From contig CAJINV010000015.1 of assembly GCA_905178155.1 (NCBI GenBank), positions 271,309 to 335,308 on the forward strand: a stretch of 64,000 nt of DNA, read 5' to 3'. The notes below the pieces were generated by a model. It had not been told where the DNA came from and searched no databases. It saw only the letters and a list, made by a program, of their open reading frames with translations. The stretch is from Amoebophrya sp. A120 (Eukaryota; Protista; Dinoflagellata). Shown here piece after piece: positions 1,993 to 64,000 of this stretch (positions are counted from its first letter, which is position 1; every line of letters begins with the position of its first letter). Made by a program: the position numbers and the translations under genes.

Positions 1993-4900
1993 TATCCAAG
2001 AAAAAAACTGTGTTAGTGTAAGTCTTTTGGGAAAACAGCATCACAAGTTTGTCTGCCATGGCAGGACAAACTTGTTATGCGCAGATACAAAGGGAAAACA
2101 CATAGGAAGCGAGCCGGTCATGCATGTCGAGCATGACAAGTGTAACTGTTTTGCATCTTCTGCATCACAGATTTACACTTACACAGTTTTTTTCTTGCAT
2201 ATGTACTCCAAAACTGGTAAAACGGTTTCGAACTCCACGTCTTGGCTGACCAGAACGCTCAGGTCGTACAGCCGCTGCAACACAGCATTGATTGTGTTTT
2301 TGCTTTATGAATTGTAAAAATGTCTGGGTCTGGAAGATTGCCAGATTTGTCATGCTAGTCTGGCATGACTCTGAACTCTGTATTGCGTGCCCGCGAAAAG
2401 GGCTTTCTACCTGTCATGCAAAAACGCAGTCTCTCATGCGGATTACGCAACTCTAAACCACGGAAAAACTTGTCATGCTGGACAGCGCATTACAGTGAGC
2501 TCACTCTTCCCTTTCTTGCATCACAAGTTTCCAGACCCAGACATTTTTGCATTTGATATGCTTTTCGGGGAACTAGAGCTCGACTTCTTCGCGATAATCT
2601 CTTCCAACCCGCAATCCGCAAAGAGGATCAAATTCTTATGGGACTTTCAAACGTAACATTCTCAACTGCTACATGCATTTGTCATGCAGAATCACGATCA
2701 TGCTTCTCACGATCAAGCTTCTTCGCATGAAAAGTTTTCGACAAACTAAATAGCATTACAATCTGTGCCAAATGATCTGTAATGCACCACGCGCGAGCAG
2801 GTCCCCCCTTTCACTTTTGCCATTGTTGCATTACAAATTCATGTAACAATTGAGAATGTAACGTTTGAGAACGCCATAATTCTTGATCATTTCCGCCGAC
2901 AAATCCATGGGGCGAGACAGCATGTCGCAGTACGCAATTTGCAACTCCTGCTTGTGCTTCTCGATCCTGTTACGTTCCTCCAAACTCCTCTGCGTTTGTT
3001 CCCCAGCACGTGCTGTTTGTTCAGAACCACTAGTGCTGTTACCCCCTACCATCTGCTGCAAGAAGTCCCCGGCCGGCGTTTGCCCACCGGCAAATTATCA
3101 AATGTAAAAATGTCTGGGTCTGGAAGATTAGAACTTGTCATGCTAAATCTGAAGCAGGGAAAAAACTGTGTTGCATGATTGCCAAAAGTTGTGCACTTTT
3201 GACCTAGTCGGGAGGCAGTTTCTCATGCAGGATAGGCATTAGAAAGGACCCGCAGAACCTGTCATGCTATGTCCTACATACCACACCTCATGGGTCATGG
3301 AAAATATGCATGACAAATCTAGAAATCTTCCAGACCCAGACATTTTTACATTTGGTACAAATAGTCCTCGTGCAACTGCGGACATGGAGTCACCAAGAAG
3401 GCCGAAAAGTGACTCATCCCGGCTTTGATTCTCCACGATCTTCAGTTGGAAGACGTTTTGGGGAAAAATTTTCCGCATGTTCTTCACGATATCAAGTGCA
3501 AATATGTCTCGGTCTGGAAGATGCGCGTGTTTGTCATGCATCTTCTCGTGCTGGACGACCACACTCACAGATGGTCTGGAATGCACACAGACGCATGGTA
3601 AGTTGTGCGTCAAGCGCTACGTAAAAAAATCAAAATAGGAATCCCGAACATGCTAAATCCTAAAACCCTAACTGCGTCGGCCACGGAACTGTGTCGAAGC
3701 GTGCCTTTATTTGGCGTTCATGCAACACAGATTTTTGTGCGATTCAAATTTTGCATGACAAGTTGCATCTTTCCAGAGCCAGACAGATCTGCAAAAATGC
3801 ATAAACAAAGTCCTGATACAATTTCCCGCGTGACCAGATGTCGGACCGCAGCGACAGCTCTTCCATTTGTTGCGTTTTTCCGTTTTCCAGGGGAACCTCG
3901 ACAATCCGCGTCTGCAAGGCGCCGGCGGCTTGCAGAAATTCCACGCCGAAGTTACGGAGGAAGCCGTGCCGGTGGAGATTAATCAGGTAGATGGACATTT
4001 GCGGTTTCGGGATTTGGCCGCCTCTACTCGAAGAAGAAAACATGCCCCCTGCAAATGTTCCGCTGCGCATCTGGTCTTCCCACACTCTTGCACACTCCTC
4101 TGCGACAGCGCTCATGTCCATTTCGTTTTGCAGGGCGGCCCGCCACAGCTGGTTTTTCAAATCCATCGCTTCTTTCAACGCCTTTGCTTGCTCGGGCCCG
4201 CCCGGTTGGTAGAATTTCAAGTCCAACTCCCTGTCAATCACACCGGAGAGCAGTCCTGCCTCGTCAGCGTCGGGCCCGAGTTGCAAAATGGCATACTGCT
4301 TCCGCAAAAGCCTGTCATTTTCAAACTTCTTTTTCTTCTCCGGTTCTGGGCTGAGCAACTCACTGTCCTTATTTTTCACCTTCTCGTCCCATTCTTGCGC
4401 ATATTTGTCGCCCCACTCGATGATCTCGGCGTGCACAATCTCCGCCATAGAGCTCAATTCCACGAGCGACACCTCGGCGTCAGCCGCGAGGGAAATCTTT
4501 TTTGCCGAGGAACTAGCAGTGGACACCGGAAACAGGACCGTGTTGAAGAGCTTCAGTGTCTCTCTGCAGTGCTTGCGCTGCCACGGCTTCTGGTTCTTTT
4601 CCTGCATGATTGTCGCTTCGGCATGATCTTCTTCGACTACACCGTTCGCCTGCACAGTACTAGTCGCTACGGTGGTCGTCTGGTCGCAAAACGCTAGCGA
4701 TTTCAACAGCGCAGACGATAACAGAAGACTTCTCCGCTCCTCATCGCTCGTGGAGGTTGGCAGCGGAAAGCGGGTCACCAAGCGCGTGTCGAGTTGCGAT
4801 GCGCCGATTTCCGGAGAAATAGGTCCTCCACCCCGGGAAGTACTAGACGTAATCGTGGCGTCAAGAACATCTGGCGACGCTTCGAAGCTGCCTGGCCGGG

Positions 4901-7900
4901 TTCCGGTTAAGCGCAGGTTGAGGATGGTCTGCACGCTCCGCCAGAGCTTCTGCACGTACTCGATGGTTTTCGTGGTGGAGTGGTCCTGTTCCAGCCGTCG
5001 GGCGGTCTCGTACATGGAGAGAGTCTCAAGATTACTGATCTTCTCCCGCTTTTCGCGCTCCGCCCGTTGGGTCTCTGTTTCCGGGGGCGGGTCGTCGCCA
5101 CCGCCGCCAGCACCAGTAACAGATCGAATTTGTTTCACGAATGCCGGCTTCGCAGCATCAGCGGCGTCACCAGCTGCTTTCAGCGTTTGAGAACCTAATT
5201 TCTCTCCCATTGTGCGAAAAAGAAAAACCCATCCGGTTGTCGTCTCAGCGGGTTTATTTTTCGCCGCTGAAGCGCTTGGCGTCATGGGCTTGGAAGTACT
5301 TTTTTTTACCGGGGACGCACTCCCTTCATCGGGAACACCATCTTCATCATCATCATCACCAGACCCCGCGTTCATACTCATGTCGGCAAGATCGGCAGCC
5401 TCTTTTCTTCTCGCCATCTCCTGCATCAGGAATTTCTGCTCTTTCCGTCTCTCCTGCTCCCGAAGATGGGACAACACATTGGAGTACTCGCGAATCACTT
5501 CGTTGCCCAGAGGCTCATCCAACACTAGGTCATCGGACGAGGTGACCGCCATGGAGATTTTGGGCACGAAAAACTCCGCCAGCACCTTGCCCCGGAGTCT
5601 TGCATACCGGTCCCAGGATTTCGTGCACTGATTCTGCTGTTGTTGTACCGCAAGCGTCGTTTGCAGCTGCGGTCCCTCGTTTCCTGTTTGCTGCATTTGA
5701 TGTTCTTCTGTCGTCCGACGGCTCATCTGTATCTTTTTCTGCATATTGACCACATGTTCCCCGAACACCTTCCCCAAAAACTCCGACTGCACCGTTCCGG
5801 CCACCGGTGCGATGCTCAGGATCAGCTGCCGCAGTTCCTGGAAAATCTGTCCGGCTTTGTCGCCCTCAATCTTCGAAGCGGCGGCCGAGTTTGCGGCTGT
5901 GGAAGGGGAAACGGTAGCCGCGGACGCTGCGGAGAGACTCGTGGCGGATAGTCCGCCCGTGGTCTGCTCCAACGTGAAAAGTAGGGAGACGATTGACTCG
6001 ACCAGGTGAAACAAGGCCTCCGTAGACCGCACATCCAAGCGCAACAAATCTGCCGCGCCGGCGGTTGAAGCAGAGCCACTGTTTGATGCACCGGGTGCAG
6101 CTCCTCCTCCACTCGGGCTGCTGGGCATCTCTGGGGAAGGAACAGGGGACGTTCCTGCATCGTCTTCGTCGGAATTATCGCCTTGGGTGTCCTCCAGGTC
6201 GTCATCTTCGCCGATTATACGCGGACTGAGGTATCCTGTGTAAAAACGTCCCCACCCCATAGTCAAGATGGGGATTTTGCAACACAAACCTAGGAGTTTT
6301 GGGAGTCACGCATGACAAGTTGCGCTATGCAGTGTAGTGCAGGTTAGCAAGTGCAGCCGCATCACAGATTCACACTCATCTGCTCATCCTGTTCACAGCA
6401 TCACAAATTTCAAAACACGATTGGAAATGGCTTTCTCTCTCATGGGGATGCGCATTACAAGTCTTCCTGTCTTTGCAAATCTGCATTACAACTCTGGTGT
6501 GGGTACGTTTTTACTCAGGATATGAGGGCCGGGATATTCATATTTCCCGTTCGCCCTTGCGGTAATGTCAAAGATCCAGTTGCTTTCGGGCCGCGTCTTT
6601 TCGGACTAATTGCCTCGATGATTCCCTTATCAAATGCAAAAGTGTCTCGGTCTGGAAGATTGCAACTTGTCATGCTCTTTTTGGACTCTACTAAACAAAT
6701 TTGTGTTGCACGACCAGCAAGAGGGGCACAGTTACAGTTTGTGCTACACGGGCAGGGCATTTCTCATGCGGAAGGTGCATCAGGGCGCCCTCTAAAAGTC
6801 TGCGATGCTAGGCCATGCATTACAGGCATCATGGGTCATGAGATATATGCATGACAAGTCTTGCATTCTTCTAGACCCAAACATTTTTGCATTTGATATC
6901 CCTGGTGGGTCATATCCTCGAGACCGTCCATTGAGATTCCCATGGACCTCGGCATTTCTTGAATCGGCGTCATTACATTCGTGCGCGGGATGGGAGTCGC
7001 CGGACCCATAGACGACGCTGCGGCACTGTAAGCAGGGCTTTGTTGTAGTTGTTGTGCCGCCAGTTGACGTTCTCTCACAAGCGCGTGGTCAATAGAATCA
7101 CTCCTGGGCAGAGACCCCGGTTGGTTGATCTGCGATTGCTGGAAAGAGCGCTCGGTTGTAGTTCCACCCGCGGAAATGAACGTTCGCTCAACAGGTTGTA
7201 CTTGTTGCGGAGGTTCTTGTTGTTCCACAGTCCGTTTGCAAATCGTTTCGACCTGGCTGCGCATCATCGGGATGCCGATTTTCAGAATTTGCGCGAATTT
7301 TTCAAACAGGAAATAGGACCCGTGCAAAATGTTCTGCTTCCGTTGCTCGATCATGACGCGCAGCAAATGCAACAACCTGTCCGTGGACTGCAAGTTCCAG
7401 TTGGACAAAGTGTGCGTGTTGTCAAGCCGTGGTAAGGCTTTCAACGTACGGTCGAGAAACGCGTCAATCACATCTATCATGGAATCCGGGATCGAGCGCG
7501 ATTTGTTCTTCAGGTATTGGAAAAAGACCGGCGTGGATTTCTTCTGCGAAATCCTTTCTAATTCAATAGAGGAGATCGGCTCGTGGGTTTTGAGAAACAG
7601 CGCCTTCTGCAACTGGGTTGCTAAAACCACTTCTGGATTATTTTGCGTCTGCTCGTCAATGAATTCTCCCTGGTCGCCGGCGTCGCTCTGTGGCGTAGTG
7701 TCTGTTTCCTCCATGTTTATGCCGCCTGTTGGGGAGTTGGCCGAGTTCACACGTCCCACTCCTCGTTCCGAGGAAGCTGACAGACTCGAGCCAGAACGAA
7801 TGGGGAGGCGGATTCCTGCAGCCCGCTGAGATTGTTCTTCGGATGCACGACGTGTAACACCAGTAGAACCGCCACTGAGCGTACTCTGCACCCGCTGCTC

Positions 7901-10900
7901 CAAGCGTTGCGCTTCCGACGTGTTGTAGTCCGGCGACTGTCCGGCTTGGGAAGATTCCTCTTCTTCGTCCCCCTCGTGGATTGGAAAGGTCCCCTCACGC
8001 ATCAACGCGTCCGCGCCTGCGGATTCCGAAAATCCGCGGGCACGGCGGCCCTGCGGTGAACTGTCGTCGTTGTCGTCATCTGCCGAAACACCGCCTGGAT
8101 TTTGGCCTCCCGCCCCGGCGGAGGAGGAGGAGAAAATCACATCCGTCGCTCTCGCCGCGTGCTCCATCTGTCGCGCGGCCGCCTCGAATTGCAGCAGTCG
8201 AGCTAAATCCATGGAAATTTCCGGTAATTTCACACTCTGGCTGTTCTGCGCCGCGGTAGCAGCTGCTGGGAGCGGGAATGCGGAGGTGGTTGCGGTTGTA
8301 CCAAGTCCGGAACCACCTGCAGCACTGCTTCCCGCATTAGAAGTATTCAACCCGGCAACGGTGAACGCATTGTTGGTCACGTAGGACATCAAAATCTCAA
8401 AAGCCAGTCTCCTTTCCTCCTTTTTCAGCGCGTAAATCTTCGTATCCCGCATGTTCATCATGCCGGATGACGCAGCGCCTCCTCCGGACGAGGAAGACAC
8501 CGAGATCGTGACGGCTGCCCGTTCTAACAAAATGTCCTTTAAAAACGTCAACGCAATCTCCGGGAGAATGAGATTCAATTTTTGAATCTTCGCGATTCGG
8601 TCGTTGAAGAGTTTTTGAGTGGGGGAGGTGGTGGATGAAGAGTGTTTTAATACAGTGTCGCCTTCTGTTTGTTCATCATCCACAACATTATCATCCGACA
8701 CGTGGATTTGCAACAACTTCAGCAACTCCAACTTCACCTGCCCTTTCAGATTCACCAGGTTATTGCCCCCGGAGTCGGAGGATACTAAAACGACCGCGTG
8801 GATGATCTCCTCCCAGAATTCCGTGGTGAACTTCATGAACGGCAACTTCTGCAAGGTTTTCAGGAATGTGGTCAACTTCTCGCTGTTCCAGAGCAATTCT
8901 AACCTGTGGAGGTCATCCGTGTTCTGGTTCATCTTGTTCTTCTTGTTTCTGGCATTACCTGAGCCCCCAGCGGGTCCGAACGAGGAAGTTCCACCCGCAA
9001 TCGCCATGGCGGCTTTCGACATTTTGCTCACGGAAGACGAGAGCTTGCTGTTGCCGGAAGTCCAGCTAGTAGGGTAGGATGGGAACACTTCTTCGCGCAA
9101 GACGTGCCGGATGATCTCGGTGTATTGCGGTAGCGCCTCTTCCAGAGACAGGAGCCACAGCGTCGGCTCGAGATAGGCGGATTGGCTCGCAATCTCCCGG
9201 GTCGTCGGGACCGCAGTGGCTTGCAAGAGATAGTGCCACACGTACTGCCGTTCCCGTCTTTCCCGCTCTTTCATAGCGGCTTCCTCCGCACTGAGTGCTG
9301 CGCCGGCTGCCTGCGAAGATCCTCCTCGGCGAGCGGCTGCAGCGTAGTTATCAGCGTTTGATTGCCTACTATTCCCCTTCTCCTGTCCAAAGTCCAAGGA
9401 ACTCTGGTTGATCAAAGTCCGCTGCAGGTTCGTCCGCATCGCCAAGACCAAAGCGGCGCGGCGCTGCGCAAATTGGTGCAAGGAATCGATGGTGGCGAGC
9501 TGCCCGCCGAAGAAGGTTTTTTCCGCCGGTTTGTTGTTCGCGATCAGCGCCGCGGTTGTCAAATGGTGTCCGACGGGCAGGTTGCTGTAATCCACCTCGT
9601 CGTCCGCTTTGTTTCCGTCGCTTTTCACGATGTCGACGATGTTCATGTCCATCTCAATGACCGCAGCGGACGGGAGTTTCGCAATACCGGCCTCCTGCGT
9701 CCCCGATACCACGGACCGGATCACTTCGGATTTTTCGTAGGATTTCCACTTTGCAATTTCCGCGACTTTGGCGAATTTCTGCAATTTCTTCTGCGCTTCA
9801 ACGAAGATCAACTGCTTCAAAACGAACTGCTGCAACCCCGTGATGATCTGTTTGGACATCTGCAGCGCCTGCTTCTCGATCTCGTTAAATTCGTGTCGCG
9901 CTTCCCGGGTTTTCAGAATCGAGTGCTGGCGGTTCTGCTCCAAGATCGCCAGCAGAGCGTTGTTTGACTCGAAGTATTTCGCTTCGACATCGTCGAGAAA
10001 GACGATGGAGGTGGGAAGAGCTGTACTACCAACTGACGCCTGATGTAGTTGTTGTCCCGCCCCACCAGGGTTCGAACCCGAGGGCCCTTGCTGTTGCTGC
10101 TGACCTGTTGCGCCACCTTGCTGCGCATTACCGCCAATCACGGCCGCCTGTTCCCTCGCAGCCATGTTGTTGGTGCAACAAGCCGCCGTCATGATTGCGC
10201 TTTCCAAGTCTTCCTTATCTTTCGCCACAGCGTCGCGCCAGTTGTTCTCCAGCTCCGCGTTGGGAGAACCGGTAAGAAGCGTGCGGAAAAGCGGAAAGAG
10301 CTCAAAAACCACCGGGTACTCGTCTTCCTGATCAATTTCCTCCTCTGCCCCCTCACCAATATCCTTCGCGTCACCAGCGATTAGACCGGGCGACCTTTCT
10401 GCTTCGCTGGAGGCCGTGGACTTGATGCTGTCTTTTCTGCTGAAGCTCTTAGGAGTGGAGGTGGAGCCGTCTCCAATGCGAGGATCAGACGCAGAAGATC
10501 CGGTTCGCTGTGCCGTCGGGGTTGGTTGGCCCGAGGAGGAAGACGCGCTGCCGATGCTTGGCTGGGCCGTCATTTCCTGTCCTCCGTCTACATCCATGGC
10601 ATCTTCGGGGGCTCCGTCTGCATCGTACTTAATAACTTGCTCCGCCCCAGATTCGCTAATGCTAACTTTCCTCGCAGCTCTAGTTGAAGGTGTTCCCTGG
10701 CGGGGCGAGGCGGCTGGAGCGGCTTCCTCCCCTATGCTGGGTAAAAACGTCCCCGCCCCAGAGTTGTCACGCAAATCTGCATGCCAAAAAAGTTTCTCAT
10801 GCGGAGCCCCATGAGAAGCATTCTCTAGTTGTGTTTTGGAGTTTGTGATGCTAGAATCAGCATGATGTCCTAGATCTGTGACGCTGCTGAGCTAGCGAAA

Positions 10901-55900: not shown

Positions 55901-58900
55901 CTCCGAGTCCTCAGATGGAGAGTCCTCATCTTCTGAGTCGCTGGGCTCCGACGAGGAGTCGGTGCTCCCCGGTGATTTTTTCTTCTGCTTCTGTTTGTCT
56001 TTCTTCCCACCGACCGCCTTTTTACCGGCACTGGAGGCTTGTCCCCTCGTGCTGTCGCTTCCAGCTCCTGCGGGTGTTTGTGGAGATGAACGCGGGTCCA
56101 TGTCCACATCCGCGTTTATCTCTCCTGAAACAGCTGCGGTCTGCCCGTCTTGTTGATGGTCCTGCATAATATGATCGCCTCCACCCAGTGCTGCACCACC
56201 CCCGAGGTGGAAGGCAGAAGTGCCTCCACTACCACCCTGCAGCGCCGCGGAGATGCCGATCTGCACGAGGTCTAGAGAAGAGCTGCTCTTCCGTTCCGTC
56301 TGCTGCAGAATCAGCTCACCGAGCAATCGTGTCAAGCTAGTTCTGCTCTTTTTGCCGCGGTCCTGCTTTGGCGCCTCAAACTCCTCTTTCAGCACGGAAA
56401 TCTTGGTGTTGTCCATGCTGGTAATGCCACCTGCGATGTGATCATTTGTAAAAACGTCCCCAGCCCAGAGTCAAGATGGAGATTTTGCAACACAAACCTT
56501 GAAGCTTTGGGAGCCACGCATGACAAGTTGCAGACTGTAGTGTAATACAGTTTAGCAATGGAAGATGAAGCCGCATAGAAAAGCCATCTCCTTATACTGT
56601 TTACAGCATTACAAGTTCCAAAACACAATGGGAAATGCCTCTCATGGGTATGCGCATTACAAATGCTCTTGTGCTTGGAGATGTGCATGACAACTCTGGG
56701 GTGTTTTATGTACTGGAAAAGACCAAATATAATGACAACTCTGGGGTGGGGATGTTTTTGCACCGGATAGATGAGATCCAAGAACGAGTCCGTCAAGTAG
56801 CTCACGACCGCCTGATTGCACCCGGAGGTTGTAGAGGGGGAAGAGCCACCAGATTGAGCGCCGGCAAATGACGGGTCTGCCAGGTAGGTTTGCAAAGCGG
56901 AAACCAGGCTCATATGCGACGACGCATGTTGAAAGTTATTCCCATCGCTCACGCGCGGAATCTCGAAGGTTCCGTCTTCGTTATCGCACGAAAAAAACAG
57001 GTTTAGTGTAACTTTCTATGGAGGAATAGCATCACAAGTTTTCTCTGCATGACACAGAAAACCTGTCATGCGTAGCTAGTACGTGAAAACACGCGCGAAA
57101 AGAGCCTCTGATGCATGTCCAGCGTGACAGCTGATATTGTCTTGCGTCGTCTGCAATACAAAGTTCGACTTACACAGTTTTTTTCCTGCGATATTCGTTC
57201 CTCGGCGTGTCGTACAACTCATTTTCGCCGTATCAAATGTAAAAATGTCTGGGTCTGGAAGAATCCGAACTTGTGATGCTAAATTTGGACTCTAAAAATA
57301 TCTGTATTGCATGACCAGCAAGAGGAGCCACATTTGTGCTACGCGAGGAGGGCATTTGTCATGCGGAAATGGCATCAGGAAGCCTTCCAAAAATCTGTGA
57401 TGCTGGGTCATGCATTACAAGCATCATGGGTCATGCCAGACAAGCATGACAAGCCTTGCATTCTTCCAGACCCAGACACTTTTGCAATGCATACGCCGTC
57501 GGACTCGCCACCGTCGTTATCTGACTCGTTTTTCTCTTCCTCTGCTACCATCTTTTGCACGGATTTCGCTACAGCTTCTTTTCTGCTCTCTTTCTGCTCG
57601 GCGTCGTCGGCGGCCGTGTTGCCAGTCGCATCGGCGGTAGTGGCGAGATGGTCGCCAGCGGTACCCGACTGCCCTCCCATCTGCATCGCCGAATGTCCGT
57701 GGCCCTCTTCATCGTCTTCATTTTCGCTATTGTCGCCATTCTCAGTCATATTCTCGTCATTATCGCTGTCCCCAGGCGGAGTTTCATCCGCTGCTCCTTC
57801 ACTACTCCTAGAAGGGGCATGATTACTGCCTTGGCGCTGATCGGAAGACAGCCCTGTAGCCGTAGCGCCGTCCTCCTCTGTGTCACCGAACATTGAACTG
57901 GGGTCCCGCACTCTTGGTTCCACATCCGGCGCGGGTTGTACTTTCACCGGCGGGATAAACTCTTTGTACTTGTTATCCGAAGGAAAAATCCCCCCTCCCC
58001 ATATCAAGAAGGTGCTTCTCAGAAAATTTGTGTTGCTGATTTGTGACCACAAATCCTTGTGTCTTGCAAGAAGGCAACTCTACAGTCTCCGCCGCACTAT
58101 GCGGCCAATTTGTGACGTTACTTGAGCAACAGCATAGACATTTGTGATGCTAAGCGTCCACGTCAGAAGCTCTGTACTCAGGCACGGCGTATGCCTGCAG
58201 TCCTCTACTGCAGGACAGCTCTGATTTGTGTACACAAATCCAGCTTCAGAAACTCCGTTTTGATATGGGGAGGGGGGATTTTTCCTTTCGATACTTGTAG
58301 ATTTTCCGGGCCCCCGTCTGCGCTCCGCCAGTAAGAAAGGGGAAGGAGTGCGTGCTCATCAAGCCCGTGTTTGAACTACTTCCGCTCGCGTGGTCTTTCT
58401 GCTCGGGCGCCGGTTCGGCCGTGACTTTTTTGGTGCCAATGACTTGGTCGTACAGGCGGAGTTGCAAAATCGCGCGCTGCCGCAACGTGAACATCACCGA
58501 GTTCAAAGTTTCTTTCAAACCCCCAGTAGAACCAGAGTTACCTCCACTACCCGAGGGCGACCCCGTAGCGTCGAACGTGACCGGGGTTTGCGCCTGCAGC
58601 CACTGGGCGTGTAAGAAAACGGACTTCGCGATCTGCTTCTGCAGAGCCTCGTGCTCCAGCTTTTGTTGGTGAGCAAAGGCCGGCGAAATCATGAACCCAA
58701 GGTTCTTTTGATCATCCTCGTGCCGGACTCTGCTTTGACGTAGTTGCATTTGTCCACGCTTCAACATCCAAGAACTACTAGAAACCGCTGCAGATGCTGA
58801 CCGTCTTGCCAACCAGCTGGTAATCACCGGCGTGTTTGAAGCTAGGAAGACGTGCGCCAATTCCGCAACTTCCTCGTTCTGCAATAATGAAGACACTTCC

Positions 58901-61900
58901 ACGGTGGCTCTACTTCCCGCCGTGGTTGCACCAGAAAAGGCGACGTCTACTTGGTCGGTCGCGTGCGCGACGTGGCGCTGCAGAATGTAGAACGCATCCG
59001 TGACACGGGACTCCTCGGGGGCAACGCGGAAGAAGGAGGAAGCAAAGGCATCCATGCTTTCGGTGTTCCGGATATCAAAGGGAAAAATCCCCCCACCCCA
59101 TATCGACATGGAAATCTGTGACGCGGGATCTGTGTACACAAATCGGCTCTGTCTTGCAGTAGAGACCTGCAGACAGATACGAAGCGGGATTAAGGGTGTT
59201 TTGGTGTAGGCCCCTAGCAAGGTAGAGACATTCTCTGTAGGCCGGACAGCATGACAAATTGCCTGCAGAACGCGGCGGGGTTTTTTTAAGTATTTGTCTT
59301 CTTGCAATACAGAGACGATTTGTGACCTCAAATCAGCATCACAAATTTTGAGAAGCATCCCGTTCTGGTTTGGGGAGGGGGAATTCTTCCTCACAATACC
59401 GGAAGTGACGCGTGAACTCGAGCTGCATCGCCGCGAAAACCTCTTTATCCTCTGCAAAAGTATCGCACTCGTATGAGTGGCAGTGTTCGTTCGTTCGTTG
59501 TGGATCGGCTCTGCCGACCGGGTAACCCAACGCCTTGCATACAAATGACCGACTTAGGCGAACCCCGTTGCGGGACGTTGTATGACAGATCTATCATCTT
59601 ACCTCAGTCAGCATTACAAATTCTATTTTTCCTTTTGCAAAAATTTGTCATGCTCTTTGGGACTAGTACGATACTTTTGATGCACTGCATATTCTTCTCG
59701 CTCCCTGGTCAAATCTTTGGCAATGAAAAAGTTCACCTTCGGTTCGAAAATGCTCGTCGCACTGCCCTGGTGCAGCTGTGTACTGATTTGCTCGCGCTGC
59801 AGCGCGGCCGTGGAAGGACTTGCGGTTCCTCTGGCTTGCTGTTGTTGTTCAGCATCGCGCTCAACATCGGTGCTGGAGCCTCCGGAGGTTGACGTTCGTC
59901 CCATCCACCAGCTTCGTCCTGCGCTCGAGGCACCAGCCTGCCCAGGACTACCTGCTGACCCCCCACTCCTATCAAATGCAAATATGTCTCGGTCTGGAAG
60001 CTAGCTCAAGCTTGTGATGCTGTTTGGCGAATCATGTGAGCGCCTTCATTGACAGCTAAGCGTGACAAGTTTTGGAGTTGCTATAGTGTTGCCTATCTGC
60101 CTGACAAACTGCGTTTCTGCATGATAGAGAAACTACTTGGCTTTTCGGCGGCGTGCATGACAGATCGTTGAGAGCCATGCTAGCCGTGCATGACAAATCC
60201 TGCATTCTTACTTCCAGACCCAGATCGATATTTGCAAACCATAACTTCCGCCCCCTCCCGACTGCTTTTGCGGCCCCTTTCCGTTCTCGGCAAAAACCTG
60301 GTCGCGGAGGTTTCGCACAACAACGTCAAAGTCCTGGGCTTTCAGCAGCGATTTAAACACCGCACTGCGGGCATTGGTGAAGGTGTGAAAGATTTTCAGC
60401 GCCAAAAGCTCGTTGGAAAGTTTCGCTTCAATCAAGTCGCTTGTCTTATCAAATGTAAAAATGTCTGGGTCTGGAAGATTGCAACTTGTCATGCTAAATC
60501 TGCAGCATGCAAAAATCTGTGCTGCATGATTACCAAAAGTCGTCTAGTTTGACCAAGTCGGGAGGTAGTTTCTCATGCAGGATAGGCATTAGAAAGGTCG
60601 CGCAGAATCTGTCATGCTAGGTCCTGCATTCCAGACCTCATGGGTCATGGAAAAGCAGCATGACAAATCGCGCATTCTTCCAGACCAAGACATTTTTACA
60701 TTTGATATGTCTTCCAGTGGTACAAAACTTCCGGCCGGACCGTAGTGGCGATGATGCTGTCGGGATTGTTGTTCAAGAAAATCTCATCGAAAATGCCCTT
60801 CATTTCCTGTTATCAAATGTAAAAATGTCTGGGTCTGGAAACTTGTGATGCTGGTTGGCGTCTCATGATGAGGTTACAAATGCTGGCTCAGCATGACAAG
60901 TTTCTGAGCTCCTAGGTGTTGCCTATTCTGCATGACAAACTGCCCTTCTGCATCACAGAAAAACGGAGCTCTTGGGTAACGTGCATGACAGATTTAAGAG
61001 TCATGCCAGACAATCATGACAAACATGAATTCTTCCAGACCCAGACATTTTTACAGTTGATACCTGTTGGCGCTCGATTCTTTCCCGCATGTTCGAAGAT
61101 GAGGTCGTCGGCAAAAACGCCTGCGCANCTTCCAGACCCAGACATTTTTACAGTTGATACCTGTTGGCGCTCGATTCTTTCCCGCATGTTCGAAGATGAG
61201 GTCGTCGGCAAAAACGCCTGCGCAGAGGACGAAAACGGGGAACTGCTCGGAAGTAGGGGATTCAAGCGGCGAAGTGTGTCCAGGGGGATGAGGAAATACC
61301 GTTGCAGCAAACTGTTCCGCGCGATGGTCGAGACGATTTCCGGTCGGTACTGCACGCGTAGCAGTTTTGGCTTCGGATTATACATGTTGATGTGCTGCGA
61401 GTTTGCACTTGTGCTTGTCCCAAGCGACGCATTCAGCATATCCCGATGCTTTACGATTTGCGCAAACTCTTTCTGCTTTTTGCGCAGCAGTTGGTGCATG
61501 TTGTAGTGGAAAACTTTCGCTTTCGGGATCTTCTTCGCCGATGTCCTGTCGCGAGACGGCAGGCCTTGTTGTCCTCCATCAGGAGCTCTATTCCTGCTAG
61601 TACCCCCAGCTCTCGTCGCCGTGCCAGCTGCAACACCGTCTGCTTGGTCGGCCGAGTCGGAAGACTTTCCCAGCACAATGTGCGAGAGCAAGTTGGGCAG
61701 TACGGCATTGGGGTTCAACATGGAGGAATGGCCGCTAGTAGAGGTGGCAGCTCCACTGTGCTGCTGCAAAGAATATTCTTCAATGACGCGGCGGTCACCC
61801 TCACCCATCTCGAGATTCAGACGCAGCATCTCGGTGAATTTGCCCAGCAAGTCTTGCAGGACCGGCAAGCCGGGCTGCTGGTCCTCTCGTGCAAGAAAAG

Positions 61901-63742
61901 TAGACTGCTTCGTCCTTTTCTGGCAGGAGTAAGCATCTGTGCACGATGCAGCTCCTGTTCCAGCGTTGAGGAAGAAGGCGTGCAACTGGGCTTTCTTCCT
62001 CTCGAAAATCAGTTTTTGCACCGCAAACTTCTTCACCGCGCGTTGCATACGGCCACGGACAATCGGCAGCATCTCGTGCGCCACTCTGTTCGACTTCTTG
62101 TCGTCTGCTGTTGGGTCATACCACGGTGATTCAGCTCGCACGTTCCAGTCCCTTAGCAAGGCTATGGGAGTGTCGAGTTTTTCCGCCCAAGCCGCTTTAT
62201 TTTTGATCGTCTTTTGCATTGTCTCCTGTTTTTCCATCACGTCCACTGCGACCTTAAACAAGGTCCTCCCGAGCGCCCGCAGCTCGTCCTCGGAACACCA
62301 GCGTCCTAACGCCGCTACTTCGCCGGGGGACAGGCGCACGGCCTCAGTCTGAGTTTCCAGAAATTCTCCGAGACGCTTCAGCTCTTCAGCCTTCACCTTT
62401 TCGGACTGTTCTCCAAATTGCAGCGAGTTAATAGCGGGCTTCTCAGCACGATCTCCAAGGAGGGCCCGGATGTCGAGAAGCATCGCCAGGCGTTCTCCGA
62501 CTCGTTTCAGGGGTGAGGATTCCGGGGCGAAAGCTGCTTCTGACTCGGGAGTGAGCGCGTCCGCGACCCGATAGCGCTGGAGCCAGTGGGCACCGGTAGA
62601 GGAAACGAACGGGATGTACTTATTGTTCCTGGCTTCCCAGTGAAGGACCTCATTGTTTGTTGGGTCGTTTTCTCTGATGGGCCCGAAAAGGTCATCAAAC
62701 ACACCGAAAATTATGGATGCGTCAGGTTTGAAATGGTCAAAGTTGAAATGGTTTGTCATGCATAAAACGGATACCAGTTAGACCTACAGTTTGTAGTCGG
62801 CGCATGACAAATTTTCCCGGTCCTGGAAGCGAGTCTGTCATGCGGTTTAGGGCAAAAGAGCTGCCTTCTGTCATGCTAGTCAGCAGTCCAACTCCTGACC
62901 CTTATCAGGACTACAATCTGCCTTCCGTGCGTCCTCTGCAATAGAGTCACTTTTTGAATCGCATTTTATGCATGACAAACCATTTCAACTTTGTCGATTT
63001 CAACTCTGACACAACCATAAAAATCTCTCTGAGATTCTCGACCCGACTCTCGGAAATCGCCTTCTGGAGGGCCGTATCAAATGCAAAAGTGTCTGGGTCT
63101 GGAAGATAATTACCAGGTTTGTCATGCATATTTTGGATGACCCATGATGTCTGTGATGCACGCTCTAGCATCACAGATTTTTAGAGGACTTTGCGATGCC
63201 TCTGCCGCAAGAGAAATGCCCTCTCCGCGTAGCACGAACTGGAGTTCTCTTGCTGGTCACTCATGCAATACAAATTTTTTCAGAATCCAGAGACAGCATT
63301 ACAAGTTTAGAACCTTCCAGACCCAGACATTTTTGCATTTCATAGGCCCAACCCAGACTCTGTGCGGCATGCCCGACATCCACATCTTCCTCGGAGGTCG
63401 ACGAAGTTTTTCGCAGCCTGGAAGTCGATCCTCTCTGCTATGGCGTTCTCAACTGTTACACTCTCAACTGTTGCATGGACTTGTGATGCAAGAATGGGAA
63501 AAGTGAAAGGGGGGGCATTACGCGTCTTGCATGACAGATTTGGCAAAGATTATCATCCTGTTTCGTTTGGCCCTTCCAGGATTTGTCACGCAGAACAGCT
63601 TGATCGTGTAGACTAGATGATCATGGTGCTTTTGCATGAGAAATCATGTAACAGTTGAGAATGTAACATTTGAGAACGCCATATCTGTCGAGTCGGCGAG
63701 GCTGCGTCCTCTTCCACATCCAGGAAAACATCTGCGCCAGCA
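270..63742 (-). CDS. Giant 5'-partial multi-exon gene, ~14,190 codons after splicing; unknown function (helical/coiled-coil blocks alternating with S/G/A/Q/E/D-rich low-complexity linkers)
   Basis: All long ORFs are on the minus strand and run into TIR elements. The frame stays continuous and stop-free when each element+5 bp, the GT-AG intron 49594-50847 and the 97-nt N-gap duplication are removed. First in-frame stop is TAG at 270-272 (3' end uncertain). Confidence 0.85.
1993..2201. mobile_element. Introner/non-canonical intron, family D
   Basis: TIR tatccaagaaaaaaactg / cagtttttttcttgcata; DR tgtac. Confidence 0.9.
2306..2558. mobile_element. Introner, family A
   Basis: TIR core aaaaatgtctgggtctggaa; DR tgctt. 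Confidence 0.9.
2637..2878. mobile_element. Introner, family C
   Basis: TIR tatgg..tcaaacgt.acattctcaa; DR attct. Confidence 0.9.
3096..3357. mobile_element. Introner, family A
   Basis: A-type TIR (right end ggta); DR caaat. Confidence 0.9.
3490..3803. mobile_element. Introner, family A (degenerate)
   Basis: Decayed A-type TIR; DR cacga/aacaa; frame restored. Confidence 0.8.
3804..6231 (-). CDS. Large internal exon of the giant gene
   Basis: Core of ORF 3744..6287, bounded by TIR elements. Confidence 0.9.
6232..6522. mobile_element. Introner, family B
   Basis: TIR tatcctg.gtaaaaacgt.cccac.cca; DR tgagg. Confidence 0.9.
6628..6898. mobile_element. Introner, family A
   Basis: A-type TIR; DR tccct. 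Confidence 0.9.
6899..10732 (-). CDS. Large internal exon of the giant gene
   Basis: Core of ORF 6836..10774. Confidence 0.9.
10733..11011. mobile_element. Introner, family B
   Basis: B-type TIR; DR tcccc. Confidence 0.9.
11062..11276. mobile_element. Introner, family D
   Basis: D-type TIR; DR ctgga. Confidence 0.9.
11277..14084 (-). CDS. Large internal exon (contains a predicted coiled coil)
   Basis: ORF 11132..14029 extends open to 14084. Confidence 0.9.
14085..14349. mobile_element. Introner, family A
   Basis: A-type TIR; DR gtttc. Confidence 0.9.
14350..16802 (-). CDS. Large internal exon of the giant gene
   Basis: Core of ORF 14231..16957. Confidence 0.9.
16803..17127. mobile_element. 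Introner, family A (strongly degenerate)
   Basis: Remnant gggtctggaa / ttccagacgcagac; DR tgccg/tggtg; frame restored. Confidence 0.7.
17540..17833. mobile_element. Introner, family B
   Basis: B-type TIR; DR ttttg. Confidence 0.9.
17960..18212. mobile_element. Introner, family A (inverted near-copy of 2306-2558)
   Basis: A-type TIR; DR ctttg. Confidence 0.9.
18295..18529. mobile_element. Introner, family C
   Basis: C-type TIR; DR tccgc. Confidence 0.9.
18640..18921. mobile_element. Introner, family B
   Basis: B-type TIR; DR gaaga. Confidence 0.9.
19027..19355. mobile_element. Introner, family E
   Basis: TIR tat..ggaaaa.cccccctccccatat; DR accgc. Confidence 0.9.
20040..20248. mobile_element. 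Introner, family D
   Basis: D-type TIR; DR ttttt. Confidence 0.9.
20249..21527 (-). CDS. Internal exon
   Basis: ORF 20225..21478 extends open to 21527. Confidence 0.85.
21528..21794. mobile_element. Introner, family A
   Basis: A-type TIR; DR ccgtc. Confidence 0.9.
22087..22336. mobile_element. Introner, family A
   Basis: A-type TIR; DR ttcgg. Confidence 0.9.
22394..22673. mobile_element. Introner, family B
   Basis: B-type TIR; DR ccggc. Confidence 0.9.
23273..23512. mobile_element. Introner, family F (long, divergent interior)
   Basis: TIR tat..tgcaaaagtatcgcact; DR gctcc/ggtcc. Confidence 0.8.
24489..24754. mobile_element. Introner, family A
   Basis: A-type TIR; DR atgcc/gtgcc. Confidence 0.9.
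24755..26480 (-). CDS. Internal exon
   Basis: ORF 24337..26454 extends open to 26480. Confidence 0.85.
26481..26787. mobile_element. Introner, family E-like
   Basis: TIR tatgaaaatgaaaaatgcccc / ggggcatttttcattgtaata; DR ggtat. Confidence 0.85.
26832..27082. mobile_element. Introner, family A
   Basis: A-type TIR; DR gaaca. Confidence 0.9.
27269..27428. mobile_element. Introner, family F
   Basis: F-type TIR; DR tcccg. Confidence 0.9.
27429..28520 (-). CDS. Internal exon
   Basis: ORF 27398..28471 extends open to 28520. Confidence 0.85.
28521..28807. mobile_element. Introner, family B
   Basis: B-type TIR; DR tggtc. Confidence 0.9.
28808..30005 (-). CDS. Internal exon
   Basis: Core of ORF 28800..30056. 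Confidence 0.85.
30006..30159. mobile_element. Introner, family F
   Basis: F-type TIR; DR gattt. Confidence 0.9.
30204..30476. mobile_element. Introner, family A
   Basis: A-type TIR; DR ttcaa. Confidence 0.9.
30563..30770. mobile_element. Introner, family D-like
   Basis: TIR tatggagagaaaaaag / cttttttcttttgata; DR tcctg. Confidence 0.85.
30830..31085. mobile_element. Introner, family A
   Basis: A-type TIR; DR gccgc. Confidence 0.9.
31306..31626. mobile_element. Introner, family E
   Basis: E-type TIR (left end cat); DR ggcgg/agcgg. Confidence 0.9.
31627..33969 (-). CDS. Large internal exon
   Basis: Core of ORF 31579..34035. Confidence 0.9.
33970..34294. mobile_element. Introner, family E
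   Basis: E-type TIR; DR tgttg. Confidence 0.9.
34778..35029. mobile_element. Introner, family A
   Basis: A-type TIR; DR ggagc. Confidence 0.9.
35080..35224. mobile_element. Introner, family F
   Basis: F-type TIR; DR tgcct/tagct. Confidence 0.85.
36014..36333. mobile_element. Introner, family E
   Basis: E-type TIR; DR gaggg/caggg. Confidence 0.9.
36869..37118. mobile_element. Introner, family A
   Basis: A-type TIR; DR tttcg. Confidence 0.9.
37170..37314. mobile_element. Introner, family F
   Basis: F-type TIR; DR cagat. Confidence 0.9.
38307..38556. mobile_element. Introner, family A
   Basis: A-type TIR; DR cctgt. Confidence 0.9.
38600..38838. mobile_element. Introner, family C
   Basis: C-type TIR; DR tcatc. 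Confidence 0.9.
38839..41848 (-). CDS. Large internal exon
   Basis: Core of ORF 38726..41956. Confidence 0.9.
41849..43184. mobile_element. Large 1336-bp TIR element/intron, family G
   Basis: ~60-bp TIR tatgg..gtcaacgacgcttttttcaagtatgctga.aatttt; perfect DR tttga; GC-rich interior; frame restored on removal. Confidence 0.9.
43688..43932. mobile_element. Introner, family C
   Basis: C-type TIR; DR ccact. Confidence 0.9.
43984..44266. mobile_element. Introner, family B
   Basis: B-type TIR; DR tgtcg. Confidence 0.9.
45070..45307. mobile_element. Introner, family C
   Basis: C-type TIR; DR aggca/aggcg. Confidence 0.9.
46079..46229. mobile_element. Introner, family F
   Basis: F-type TIR; DR ggggc/tgggc. 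Confidence 0.9.
46276..46537. mobile_element. Introner, family A
   Basis: A-type TIR; DR ctatg. Confidence 0.9.
46538..47578 (-). CDS. Internal exon
   Basis: Core of ORF 46419..47783. Confidence 0.85.
47579..47840. mobile_element. Introner, family A
   Basis: A-type TIR; DR cacag. Confidence 0.9.
47980..48230. mobile_element. Introner, family A (inverted near-copy of 26832-27082)
   Basis: A-type TIR; DR gcgtt/gcgtg. Confidence 0.9.
48300..48583. mobile_element. Introner, family B
   Basis: B-type TIR; DR gtctt. Confidence 0.9.
48655..48819. mobile_element. Introner, family F
   Basis: F-type TIR; DR accgc/tcctc. Confidence 0.85.
48983..49140. mobile_element. Introner, family F
   Basis: F-type TIR; DR cctca. 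Confidence 0.9.
49594..50847 (-). other. Canonical GT-AG intron (1254 nt) flanked by 7-bp direct repeat AGGTACC
   Basis: Sense strand CAAG|GTACCT...GATCAG|GTACC; length is a multiple of 3; joins ..SCRPQ-GT-NRAEG.. in frame and removes stops at 50840 and 49625. Confidence 0.75.
51008..51272. mobile_element. Introner, family A (left tip resembles F/B)
   Basis: tatcctgtgcaaacatgtctgggtctggaag; DR aggac/acgac. Confidence 0.9.
51778..52068. mobile_element. Introner, family B
   Basis: B-type TIR; DR gtaga. Confidence 0.9.
52146..52298. mobile_element. Introner, family F
   Basis: F-type TIR; DR tcgcc/tcggc. Confidence 0.9.
52620..52939. mobile_element. Introner, family E
   Basis: E-type TIR; DR gccga. 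Confidence 0.9.
53046..53297. mobile_element. Introner, family A (DR lost)
   Basis: A-type TIR; flanks agaaa/ggcgc; removal of element+5 still restores frame. Confidence 0.85.
53350..53500. mobile_element. Introner, family F
   Basis: F-type TIR; DR aatta/agttc. Confidence 0.85.
53748..54059. mobile_element. Introner, family E
   Basis: E-type TIR; DR tggtc/ttgtc. Confidence 0.9.
54524..54792. mobile_element. Introner, family A
   Basis: A-type TIR; DR cgctc. Confidence 0.9.
54893..55171. mobile_element. Introner, family B (near-copy of 18640-18921)
   Basis: B-type TIR; DR gggtg. Confidence 0.9.
55172..56439 (-). CDS. Internal exon
   Basis: ORF 55160..56416 extends open to 56439. Confidence 0.85.
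56440..56769. mobile_element. Introner, family B (left end gat; duplicated subterminal segment)
   Basis: B-type TIR; DR gatgt/gatga; atgacaactctggggtg occurs twice near the right end. Confidence 0.85.
56982..57193. mobile_element. Introner, family D
   Basis: D-type TIR; DR ttcgt. Confidence 0.9.
57231..57493. mobile_element. Introner, family A
   Basis: A-type TIR; DR cgccg. Confidence 0.9.
57974..58293. mobile_element. Introner, family E
   Basis: E-type TIR; DR cttgt. Confidence 0.9.
59073..59398. mobile_element. Introner, family E
   Basis: E-type TIR; DR ccgga. Confidence 0.9.
59446..59691. mobile_element. Introner, family F with extra internal sequence
   Basis: F-type TIR; DR ctctt/ttctt; ~90 bp longer than typical F. 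Confidence 0.85.
59970..60243. mobile_element. Introner, family A
   Basis: A-type TIR; DR actcc/acttc. Confidence 0.85.
60447..60707. mobile_element. Introner, family A
   Basis: A-type TIR; DR tgtct. Confidence 0.9.
60811..61062. mobile_element. Introner, family A
   Basis: A-type TIR; DR cctgt; right end is repeated after the N gap (ending 61159). Confidence 0.9.
61032..61224. repeat. Exact 96-bp tandem duplication around a single N (probable scaffolding artefact)
   Basis: 61032-61127 = 61129-61224, N at 61128; removing 97 nt restores the frame. Confidence 0.9.
61160..62711 (-). CDS. Internal exon
   Basis: Core of ORF 61014..62759. Confidence 0.85.
62712..63019. mobile_element. Introner, family H (single copy here)
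   Basis: ~55-bp TIR tatgg.tg.gtcag..ttgaaat...caaagttgaaatggtttgtcatgcataaaa; DR aaaat. Confidence 0.85.
63075..63344. mobile_element. Introner, family A
   Basis: A-type TIR; DR ggccg/ggccc. Confidence 0.9.
63439..63683. mobile_element. Introner, family C
   Basis: C-type TIR; DR tctgc/tctgt. Confidence 0.9.
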
Positions 63743-64000
63743 TATCAAAATGAAAAATCCCTCCTTCCCATATCAAAACGGAAATCTGTGATGCGGGATT
63801 TGTGTACACAAATCGCATTTGTCCTGCAGGGAAGCACTGCGCGCAGATGGCAAGCCCAAGAGGGGGCCTTTTGGTGTAGGGGCCCAGCATGGCAGACGTC
63901 TGCCCTGTAGGCCTTGAAGCATTACAAACCGCCTGCATAATATCGCGGCGGACTCTCTGGATTTGCCTTCTGGCAAGACGGACAGGATTTGTGGTCACAA
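63743..64000. mobile_element. Introner, family E (truncated by window end)
   Basis: Left TIR tatcaaaatgaaaaatccctccttcccatatc and E-type interior. Confidence 0.85.

Follow-up and report, generated by a model that had tools for sequence, protein, structure and literature searches.

Introduction

The closest described relatives of the elements reported here are the non-canonical introns of the dinoflagellate Amoebophrya sp. A120, the organism from which our 64,000-nt stretch of DNA comes (GenBank assembly GCA_905178155.1, contig CAJINV010000015.1, positions 271,309 to 335,308 of the forward strand; hereafter the window, numbered from its first base). Within this window, 72 inverted-repeat elements interrupt two very long reading frames. 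Farhat et al. (2021, PMC7789003) reported 66,565 RNA-seq-supported introns in A120, of which more than 60% are non-canonical and 35% canonical; the non-canonical ones are about 240 nt long, fall into repeated families, form a hairpin and are enriched in poorly conserved genes. The inverted repeats of these introner elements consist of TAT, seven less conserved bases and then at least three A, and their direct repeat (DR) measures 3-5 nt, with a 5-bp example in the legend of Fig. S19; the border position is given as 'unknown' and the splice sites are called variable. Gozashti et al. (2025, PMC12130899) described tens of introners per gene in A120, and most families among 21 of the 58 A120 rows of their Dataset S2 are entered as terminal inverted repeat (TIR) DNA elements, family unknown. 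In another Amoebophrya genome, introns are mostly GT-AG (PMC12005148).

In SOS splicing, described in C. elegans and human cells, paired inverted termini trigger the RTCB-dependent removal of DNA transposons from mRNA, with AKAP17A, CAAP1 and RTCB as factors (Zhao et al. 2025, PMC12779559); that paper does not mention Amoebophrya. It resembles what we propose for the window in that a DNA transposon is removed from mRNA, rarely at GU-AG borders and apparently without the spliceosome. The nonconventional introns of euglenids share with the window elements paired ends, borders that can be slid within a DR, an origin resembling miniature inverted-repeat transposable elements (MITEs) and, by our proposal for the window, cuts placed a fixed number of bases from a motif that pairs, and circular excised RNA has been reported for them (PMC12501133, PMC11282704). 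In euglenids the paired motif is CAG…CTG, its spacers measure 3 and 5 nt and the acceptor exon has a purine, whereas the window elements carry TAT…ATA with spacers that sum to 5 and no evident exon preference; terminal logos and flank composition in the window revealed neither the CAG/CTG motif nor the acceptor-exon purine. The elements would function like SOS-spliced transposons and Euglena introns, yet they lack features by which each group is defined. The spliceosomal introners of Micromonas and Aureococcus are likewise MITE-like TIR elements with target-site duplications (TSDs) that created introns en masse, but they carry or co-opt GT or GC and AG (PMC11282704, PMC7789003), whereas 3 GT-AG readings and 1 GC-AG reading are found among 71 elements here. 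As candidate mobilisers, IS3EU/GingerRoot elements are alike in their TA..TA termini and IS481EU elements in their TNT..AYA termini, both with integrase-like DDE transposases (PMC10045372), and both fit the integrase-like A120 family 38 (PMC12130899). Their TSDs differ, usually being 6 bp for IS3EU/GingerRoot and about 4, 15 or 25 bp for IS481EU (PMC10045372), against 5 bp here.

Compared with the published A120 introners, the window elements exhibit the same end motif, DR, hairpin, family structure and non-GT-AG borders and a similar length (about 240 nt there, a median of 262 bp here); there is no difference in kind, and here a single rule, removal of the element plus 5 nt, fits 71 of 71. 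An earlier sequence-only reading of the window had linked its inserts to Amoebophrya non-canonical introner elements with inverted and direct repeats, and the published A120 end motif matches; the elements almost certainly belong to this class. The class, the TAT motif and the 5-bp repeats are already in print (PMC7789003). Orientation symmetry, constraint on TAT/ATA, the absence of nesting and synonymous DR mismatches do not appear in the portions of that text available, although its Figs S19-S25 may show some of these. No paper resolving the Amoebophrya mechanism or tying it to SOS splicing was found in a literature search whose holdings lack most subscription journals.

TIR elements with 5-bp target duplications interrupt two minus-strand frames

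Scanning de novo for paired TAT and ATA ends flanked by a 5-bp repeat gave 58 candidate pairs, 49 of which were kept as seeds; a scan with a library of element ends added 22 further elements, and a scan with an internal motif added 1 (16803-17127). The window contains 72 elements, 71 of them complete and 1 (63743) truncated by the window edge. Pairs passing a strict filter numbered 48 in the window versus 0 in each of 20 mononucleotide shuffles. All 71 complete elements lie inside two minus-strand frames, 50 in frame A (270-49624) and 21 in frame B (50840-63741); the scans recovered the 72 TIR inserts, all in coding sequence, that had been claimed at the outset.

The elements occupy 19,466 bp in total, range from 145 to 1,336 bp (median 262 bp) and have a GC content of 0.447, versus 0.553 in the remainder of the window. 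Taking the strand of the host frame as sense, the 5′ end carries T in 71, A in 71 and T in 69 of 71 elements, and the three positions of the 3′ end are conserved in 69, 71 and 71. Positions 4-10 from the ends have an information content of 0.14-1.20, and A is present at positions 11-14 in 59-67 of 71. The DR carries one mismatch in 15 elements, two in 5 and four in 1 (53046), with a mean identity of 0.92. Repeats of 3, 4, 6, 7 or 8 bp were perfect in at most 1 of 71 elements each, with 0 of 71 for a 6-bp flanking repeat, which supports a length of 5 bp. The anatomy proposed by the sequence-only reading, TAT…ATA ends with a 5-bp DR, is therefore present but not invariably exact: the ends match in 67 of 71 elements, and the two DR copies are identical in 50 of them. 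These small TIR elements are non-coding, end in TAT…ATA and are flanked by 5 bp of duplicated target, and six families (F1-F6) take in 61 of the 71 complete ones.

Two further features of element anatomy were observed. The motif GCAT[GCT]ACA[AG][AG]T occurs in 153 copies within elements and 1 outside, in 68 of 72 elements and across families, and mostly points inward near both element ends; it is a candidate site to which a transposase or excision factor might bind. At positions 4-8, a small set of five-base words is found repeatedly at the ends of different families, while both ends of an element share a word in 10 of 71 only, which suggests swapping or conversion of ends.

Removal of the element plus five nucleotides restores the frames

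Element lengths are spread over the three phases (20/28/23), and retention breaks the frame for 70 of 71 elements. Writing k for the number of flanking nucleotides removed with each element, k=5 gave minus-strand open reading frames (ORFs) of 11,831, 1,813 and 620 codons, the latter two of which join into 2,366 codons only when a 97-bp duplication at a single N (61128) is collapsed. This duplication, with 96 bp identical on each side of the N (61032-61224), is probably a scaffold-gap overlap that falsely splits frame B, and an element end called at 61159 was rejected as an artefact of the same repeat. Frame A accordingly runs for 11,831 codons from stop to stop, and frame B for 2,366 codons, still open at the window end; neither needs a canonical intron. 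At k=0, 1, 3, 4, 6 and 7 the longest ORF was at most 1,353 codons. The values k=2 and k=8 have the right phase, but with k=2 a stop appears at the final junction of frame A, and with k=8 both frames become shorter. The rule thus holds modulo 3, and of the values 2, 5 and 8 the frames favour 5. It describes what surviving insertions obey and not the rate at which insertions are tolerated, because selection purges those that cannot be removed.

These frames uphold the earlier claim that removing the element plus 5 nt restores the frame at 71 of 71 junctions although the lengths cover all three phases. The accompanying chance of 1/3 per junction was overstated, since a short exon can have more than one open frame; enumeration of frame assignments left ORFs open in 331,776 of 3^50 and 144 of 3^18 cases, jointly about 1e-25, with the last three complete junctions uninformative (27 of 27 assignments open). 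Gene finders that rely on GT-AG borders would break these giant genes into many pieces.

The borders carry a symmetric signal

Sliding the border within the DR permits a GT-AG reading in 3 of 71 elements only (38307, 48983, 60811), exactly the three that had been named, and a GC-AG reading in one further element (24489). A GC-AG reading of 53046 was rejected, being 11 nt longer than the element plus 5 and thus out of phase given its neighbours. No base preference was evident at DR and flank positions, in agreement with the earlier description of the DR sequence as unconstrained, and insertion phases are even (20/26/25). Both orientations occur in all six families (9:15, 4:7, 5:4, 4:3, 4:2 and 3:1 for F1 to F6), and the logos of the two element ends are mirror images; on these two grounds we read the signal as symmetric, and symmetric end recognition is likely. 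A branch-point role for the internal motif was also considered and is unsupported, as the motif shows no 3′ bias (30 near the sense 3′ end versus 39 near the sense 5′ end).

Element ends and junctions are under selection

The terminal TAT/ATA triplets are changed at 4 of 426 sites versus 15-30 expected from the decay of the DRs (P<=7e-4). Changes private to single elements affect 1.1% of positions 1-3, 8.0% of positions 4-10, 2.2% of positions 11-15, 3.9% of positions 16-30 and 5.9% of the interior. Missed degenerate copies are unlikely to explain the constancy of the triplets, since the 72 elements found already suffice to complete the frames. Since TAT/ATA has been conserved after insertion, the terminal triplets probably serve removal and not transposition alone.

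Mismatches between the two copies of the DR, counted without 53046 (25 of 350 sites instead of 29 of 355), comprised 14 synonymous and 11 non-synonymous differences when read in the predicted frame; the two wrong frames gave 4:21 and 3:22. Third codon positions hold 17 of the 25 (P=0.0006). This synonymous excess indicates that coding selection acts on the junctions in vivo. The ratio of non-synonymous to synonymous rates (N/S) at these mismatches was 0.24-0.30 (95% interval 0.10-0.71); a fixed cut that leaves one copy free predicts at least 0.5, and the deviation (P=0.05-0.14) gives only a hint that both repeat copies reach mRNA. Furthermore, six elements with at most 3 of 5 DR matches remain in frame, suggesting that the cuts are placed by a ruler and do not require homology. 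The 21 junctions with mismatched repeats are diagnostic of the cut position to the base.

No nested elements, recognisable as internal element ends, were found; about 12 were expected under uniform insertion, and 0 of 10,000 simulations gave zero. Exons of at most 130 nt account for 30 of 70 (14 expected), and the shortest exon is 37 nt. Insertion targeted to chromatin linkers, as in other introners, could underlie this clustering with a 37-nt floor, and so could a lower limit on the exon size that removal allows.

Elements are present in DNA contigs

Of ten sequencing runs considered, none was recorded as having RNA over 50800-60400, which carries no weight on expression; four were aligned to 43300-60700, of which X1 and X3 behave as DNA and X5 and X6 are RNA. 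Eight X1 DNA contigs, at a depth of 35-48, cross from exons into adjoining element ends with zero differences from the window; X1 may be the source sample, contigs lose rare forms, and the listing of DNA joints, saturated by repeat contigs, does not exclude joints of empty sites. Because the DNA contigs hold the elements in place at single-copy depth, bulk DNA elimination of the elements is disfavoured. The sequence-only reading had proposed precise non-GT-AG excision at paired ends, acting on either RNA or DNA; removal of the element plus 5 nt is supported by the frames, and the DNA branch is disfavoured by the contigs.

Removal at the RNA level is very probable, on the evidence of Farhat et al. 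(PMC7789003) together with inference. Reverse transcriptase can skip hairpins flanked by short direct repeats, producing 'falsitrons' (PMC8240250), and cDNA evidence alone is weak for elements of this anatomy because the artefact yields the same deletion. The genomic evidence from mismatches and frames is free of this weakness, and we therefore conclude that removal happens in the cell.

A separate observation concerns 47756-47840, where about 200 reads of the X5 RNA library derive from another locus and consist of the last 85 nt of an F1-like element with foreign sequence on both sides. Either an abundant RNA contains an element end that was retained or truncated, or the reads come from a divergent copy.

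A model for removal and its alternatives

Our leading account, held with a little less than even confidence, is a precise, end-guided cut-and-ligate removal that acts on RNA independently of the spliceosome. A DDE transposase acting in trans would insert the elements with a 5-bp staggered cut. In the transcript, the two ends would fold into a stem, with the exon ends drawn close to each other, the cuts would be set by their distance from the invariant TAT/ATA stem base and take five flanking nucleotides in total, and an RTCB-type enzyme would ligate the exons. A fixed cut position within the repeat is simplest, and in-register sliding is possible. A more specific version, to which we give tentative credence, is that an SOS-like RNA cut-and-ligate reaction, independent of the spliceosome, has become a precise routine pathway in this lineage, by which any TAT…ATA hairpin is lost along with exactly one copy of the target site; neither orientation nor target sequence would matter to such a pathway, and its cut might slide in register inside the repeat. 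Granted the introner class, RNA-level removal and symmetric ends, the chances that the chemistry is non-spliceosomal are about even.

Several observations weigh against this account. SOS splicing is imprecise, leaves indels and has a back-up role (PMC12779559), whereas the elements here must be removed in frame at 50 sites of one gene, and a gene with 50 elements could not tolerate much imprecision. A120 retains nearly all spliceosomal proteins and U2, U4, U5 and U6, with U1 snRNA undetected (PMC7789003). A U-tract lies 11-15 nt from the 3′ end in either orientation, being part of the TIR. Predicted minimum-free-energy folds pair the termini in 62 of 70 sense strands and in 66 of 70 antisense strands, and because the antisense folds equally well, hairpin folding is no evidence for a role in RNA; moreover, stem positions 4-7 pair in only 34-47 of 71 elements. 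Selection on an RNA helix predicts an excess of G·U, and comparisons of low power detected no surplus of G·U relative to A·C on the sense strand, either in the stems (69:71) or among private changes (32:26, P=0.51). Finally, reads of the RNA runs X5 (215 reads) and X6 (4 reads) all fell on element sequence, with zero on exons and no junction reads.

The main alternative, which we regard as possible but on balance unlikely, is a modified, U1-less spliceosome reading the symmetric TIR signals (TAT and the U-tract); such a spliceosome has been suggested for Amoebophrya and reported in Fritillaria. The near-full spliceosome inventory of A120 and its 35% of canonical introns (PMC7789003) speak for it, a published review treats Amoebophrya as a case of spliceosome adaptation, the U-tract at -11 to -15, counted from the 3′ end on the sense strand, is conserved, and the precision of removal suits spliceosomal chemistry. 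Nevertheless, the DR and flank positions, where both splice sites would lie, show no evident base bias, there is no orientation bias, conservation of the tract is equal at both ends, and the motif resembling a branch site is not commoner near the sense 3′ end. Ordinary splicing at nearby GT/GC-AG sites, trimming or adding exon bases, is very improbable: some in-frame GT…AG pair lies within 20 nt of the ends in 57 of 71 elements, but the antisense control reaches 53 of 71, the strands are alike at every window (6 versus 4 pairs within 5 nt and 22 versus 18 within 10 nt), and only 3 of 71 fit within the repeat.

Alternatives that place the event outside spliced RNA share some of the same evidence. 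Excision from DNA, in the manner of ciliate internal eliminated sequences (IESs), would have a domesticated transposase cut the element and one repeat from transcribed DNA copies, and the full symmetry of the signal, the invariance of the termini and the absence of both G·U bias and nesting suit recognition of double-stranded DNA ends. The DNA contigs that hold the elements at single-copy depth, with the qualifications on X1 and on rare forms given above, make it improbable. Excision of ciliate TA-IESs leaves one TA, which corresponds to k=1; at that value the longest ORF is 1,353 codons, and the ciliate rule breaks these frames. Germline/soma nuclear dimorphism is not known in dinoflagellates. 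Quite improbable is co-transcriptional skipping, in which a cruciform, or a protein that binds the TIRs, keeps the two DNA ends together and RNA polymerase passes from one repeat copy to the other, leaving the element out of the transcript altogether. It would account for the symmetry, the lack of G·U bias and the absence of nesting, and the hint of coding constraint on both repeat copies agrees with it, but the N/S interval includes the fixed-cut range, the six elements with poorly matched DRs are still in frame, and an element end with flank from another locus is present in the RNA library; we know of no precedent for polymerase skipping of this sort. Lastly, the genes could be dead and the published junctions the product of reverse-transcriptase slippage at hairpins with direct repeats. 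The element anatomy is that of falsitrons (PMC8240250), and no homologue of the host proteins was found in the databases searched; however, 11,831 and 2,366 codons remain free of stops across insertions old enough to have diverged, and the synonymous excess at the junctions requires ongoing selection on the joined protein, so that we consider this extremely improbable.

The window narrows the question of removal to a symmetric, end-guided rule that takes the element and one 5-bp copy. If the SOS-like routine pathway is correct, a DNA transposon could insert anywhere in coding sequence at no cost, as it would have done 50 times in one gene of about 11,800 residues. If the chemistry is non-spliceosomal, the elements would represent a precise, sequence-independent splicing that links animal SOS splicing with the nonconventional introns of euglenids, and might serve as a tool for taking inserts out of RNA without a scar.

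Host proteins

The first methionine of frame A, at 49462, gives a predicted protein of 11,777 aa. Pfam searches with 17 and 13 translated segments returned only three sub-threshold matches. A search for host-protein homologues, which covers longer proteins only and is weak evidence, found none; one 420-aa exon had no homologue among 1.84 billion representative sequences, the ESM Atlas held no match for the host-protein segments tried, and BLAST detected no internal repeats in the 11,777-aa protein. None of these homologue searches placed a host protein taxonomically. The single metagenome locus obtained (L001) was rejected as a chance match, as it has one short peptide word in common and no element; its translation was read as a bacterial acyl-CoA dehydrogenase-like region.

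Positions of the elements

The elements are given here by family, without strand, with mismatched DR positions numbered on the sense strand. Family F1 has perfect DRs at 2306-2558, 3096-3357 (sense 5′ end TAC), 6628-6898, 14085-14349, 17960-18212, 21528-21794, 22087-22336, 26832-27082, 30204-30476, 34778-35029, 36869-37118, 38307-38556 (GT-AG readable), 46276-46537, 47579-47840, 54524-54792, 57231-57493, 60447-60707 and 60811-61062 (GT-AG readable). Its remaining members have DRs mismatched at position 5 (24489-24754, GC-AG readable within the DR), position 1 (47980-48230 and 63075-63344), position 4 (51008-51272) or position 2 (59970-60243), and at 53046-53297 (sense 5′ end TAC) the DR matches at 1 of 5 positions, so that none is recognisable, although removal with 5 nt is still in frame.

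Family F2 comprises 6232-6522, 10733-11011, 17540-17833, 18640-18921, 22394-22673, 28521-28807, 43984-44266, 48300-48583, 51778-52068 and 54893-55171, all with perfect DRs, and 56440-56769, whose DR is mismatched at position 1 and whose sense 3′ end is ATC. In F3, the DR is perfect at 27269-27428, 30006-30159, 37170-37314 and 48983-49140 (GT-AG readable) and mismatched at 35080-35224 (positions 3 and 4), 46079-46229 (position 5), 48655-48819 (positions 2 and 5), 52146-52298 (position 2) and 53350-53500 (positions 1 and 4). Members of F4 with perfect DRs lie at 19027-19355, 33970-34294, 52620-52939, 57974-58293 and 59073-59398, accompanied by 31306-31626 (mismatch at position 5, sense 3′ end ATG) and 53748-54059 (position 4). 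Perfect DRs flank the F5 elements at 2637-2878, 18295-18529, 38600-38838 and 43688-43932, while those at 45070-45307 and 63439-63683 are mismatched at position 1. The F6 elements, at 1993-2201, 11062-11276, 20040-20248 and 56982-57193, all have perfect DRs.

Among the unclustered elements, DRs are perfect at 26481-26787, 30563-30770, 30830-31085 (the sole element whose retention leaves the frame open), 41849-43184 and 62712-63019, and mismatched at 3490-3803 (positions 2 and 5), 16803-17127 (positions 2 and 3), 23273-23512 (position 4), 36014-36333 (position 5) and 59446-59691 (position 5). The partial element at 63743-64000 shows one end. The element at 41849-43184, at 1,336 bp, is GC-rich with long TIRs and a perfect DR, and it obeys the +5 rule too; Pfam identified no protein family in the three frames overlapping it, and no cognate transposase was found in the window.

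Other repeats in the window

Two repeats unrelated in form to the TAT elements were also observed. Downstream of the frame A stop, positions 31-200 contain short inverted and direct repeats. The intergenic interval 49625-50839 has no TAT element and contains a recurring short word, and its DNA contig depth is 410-470 versus about 50 on exons; it is a different, multi-copy repeat.

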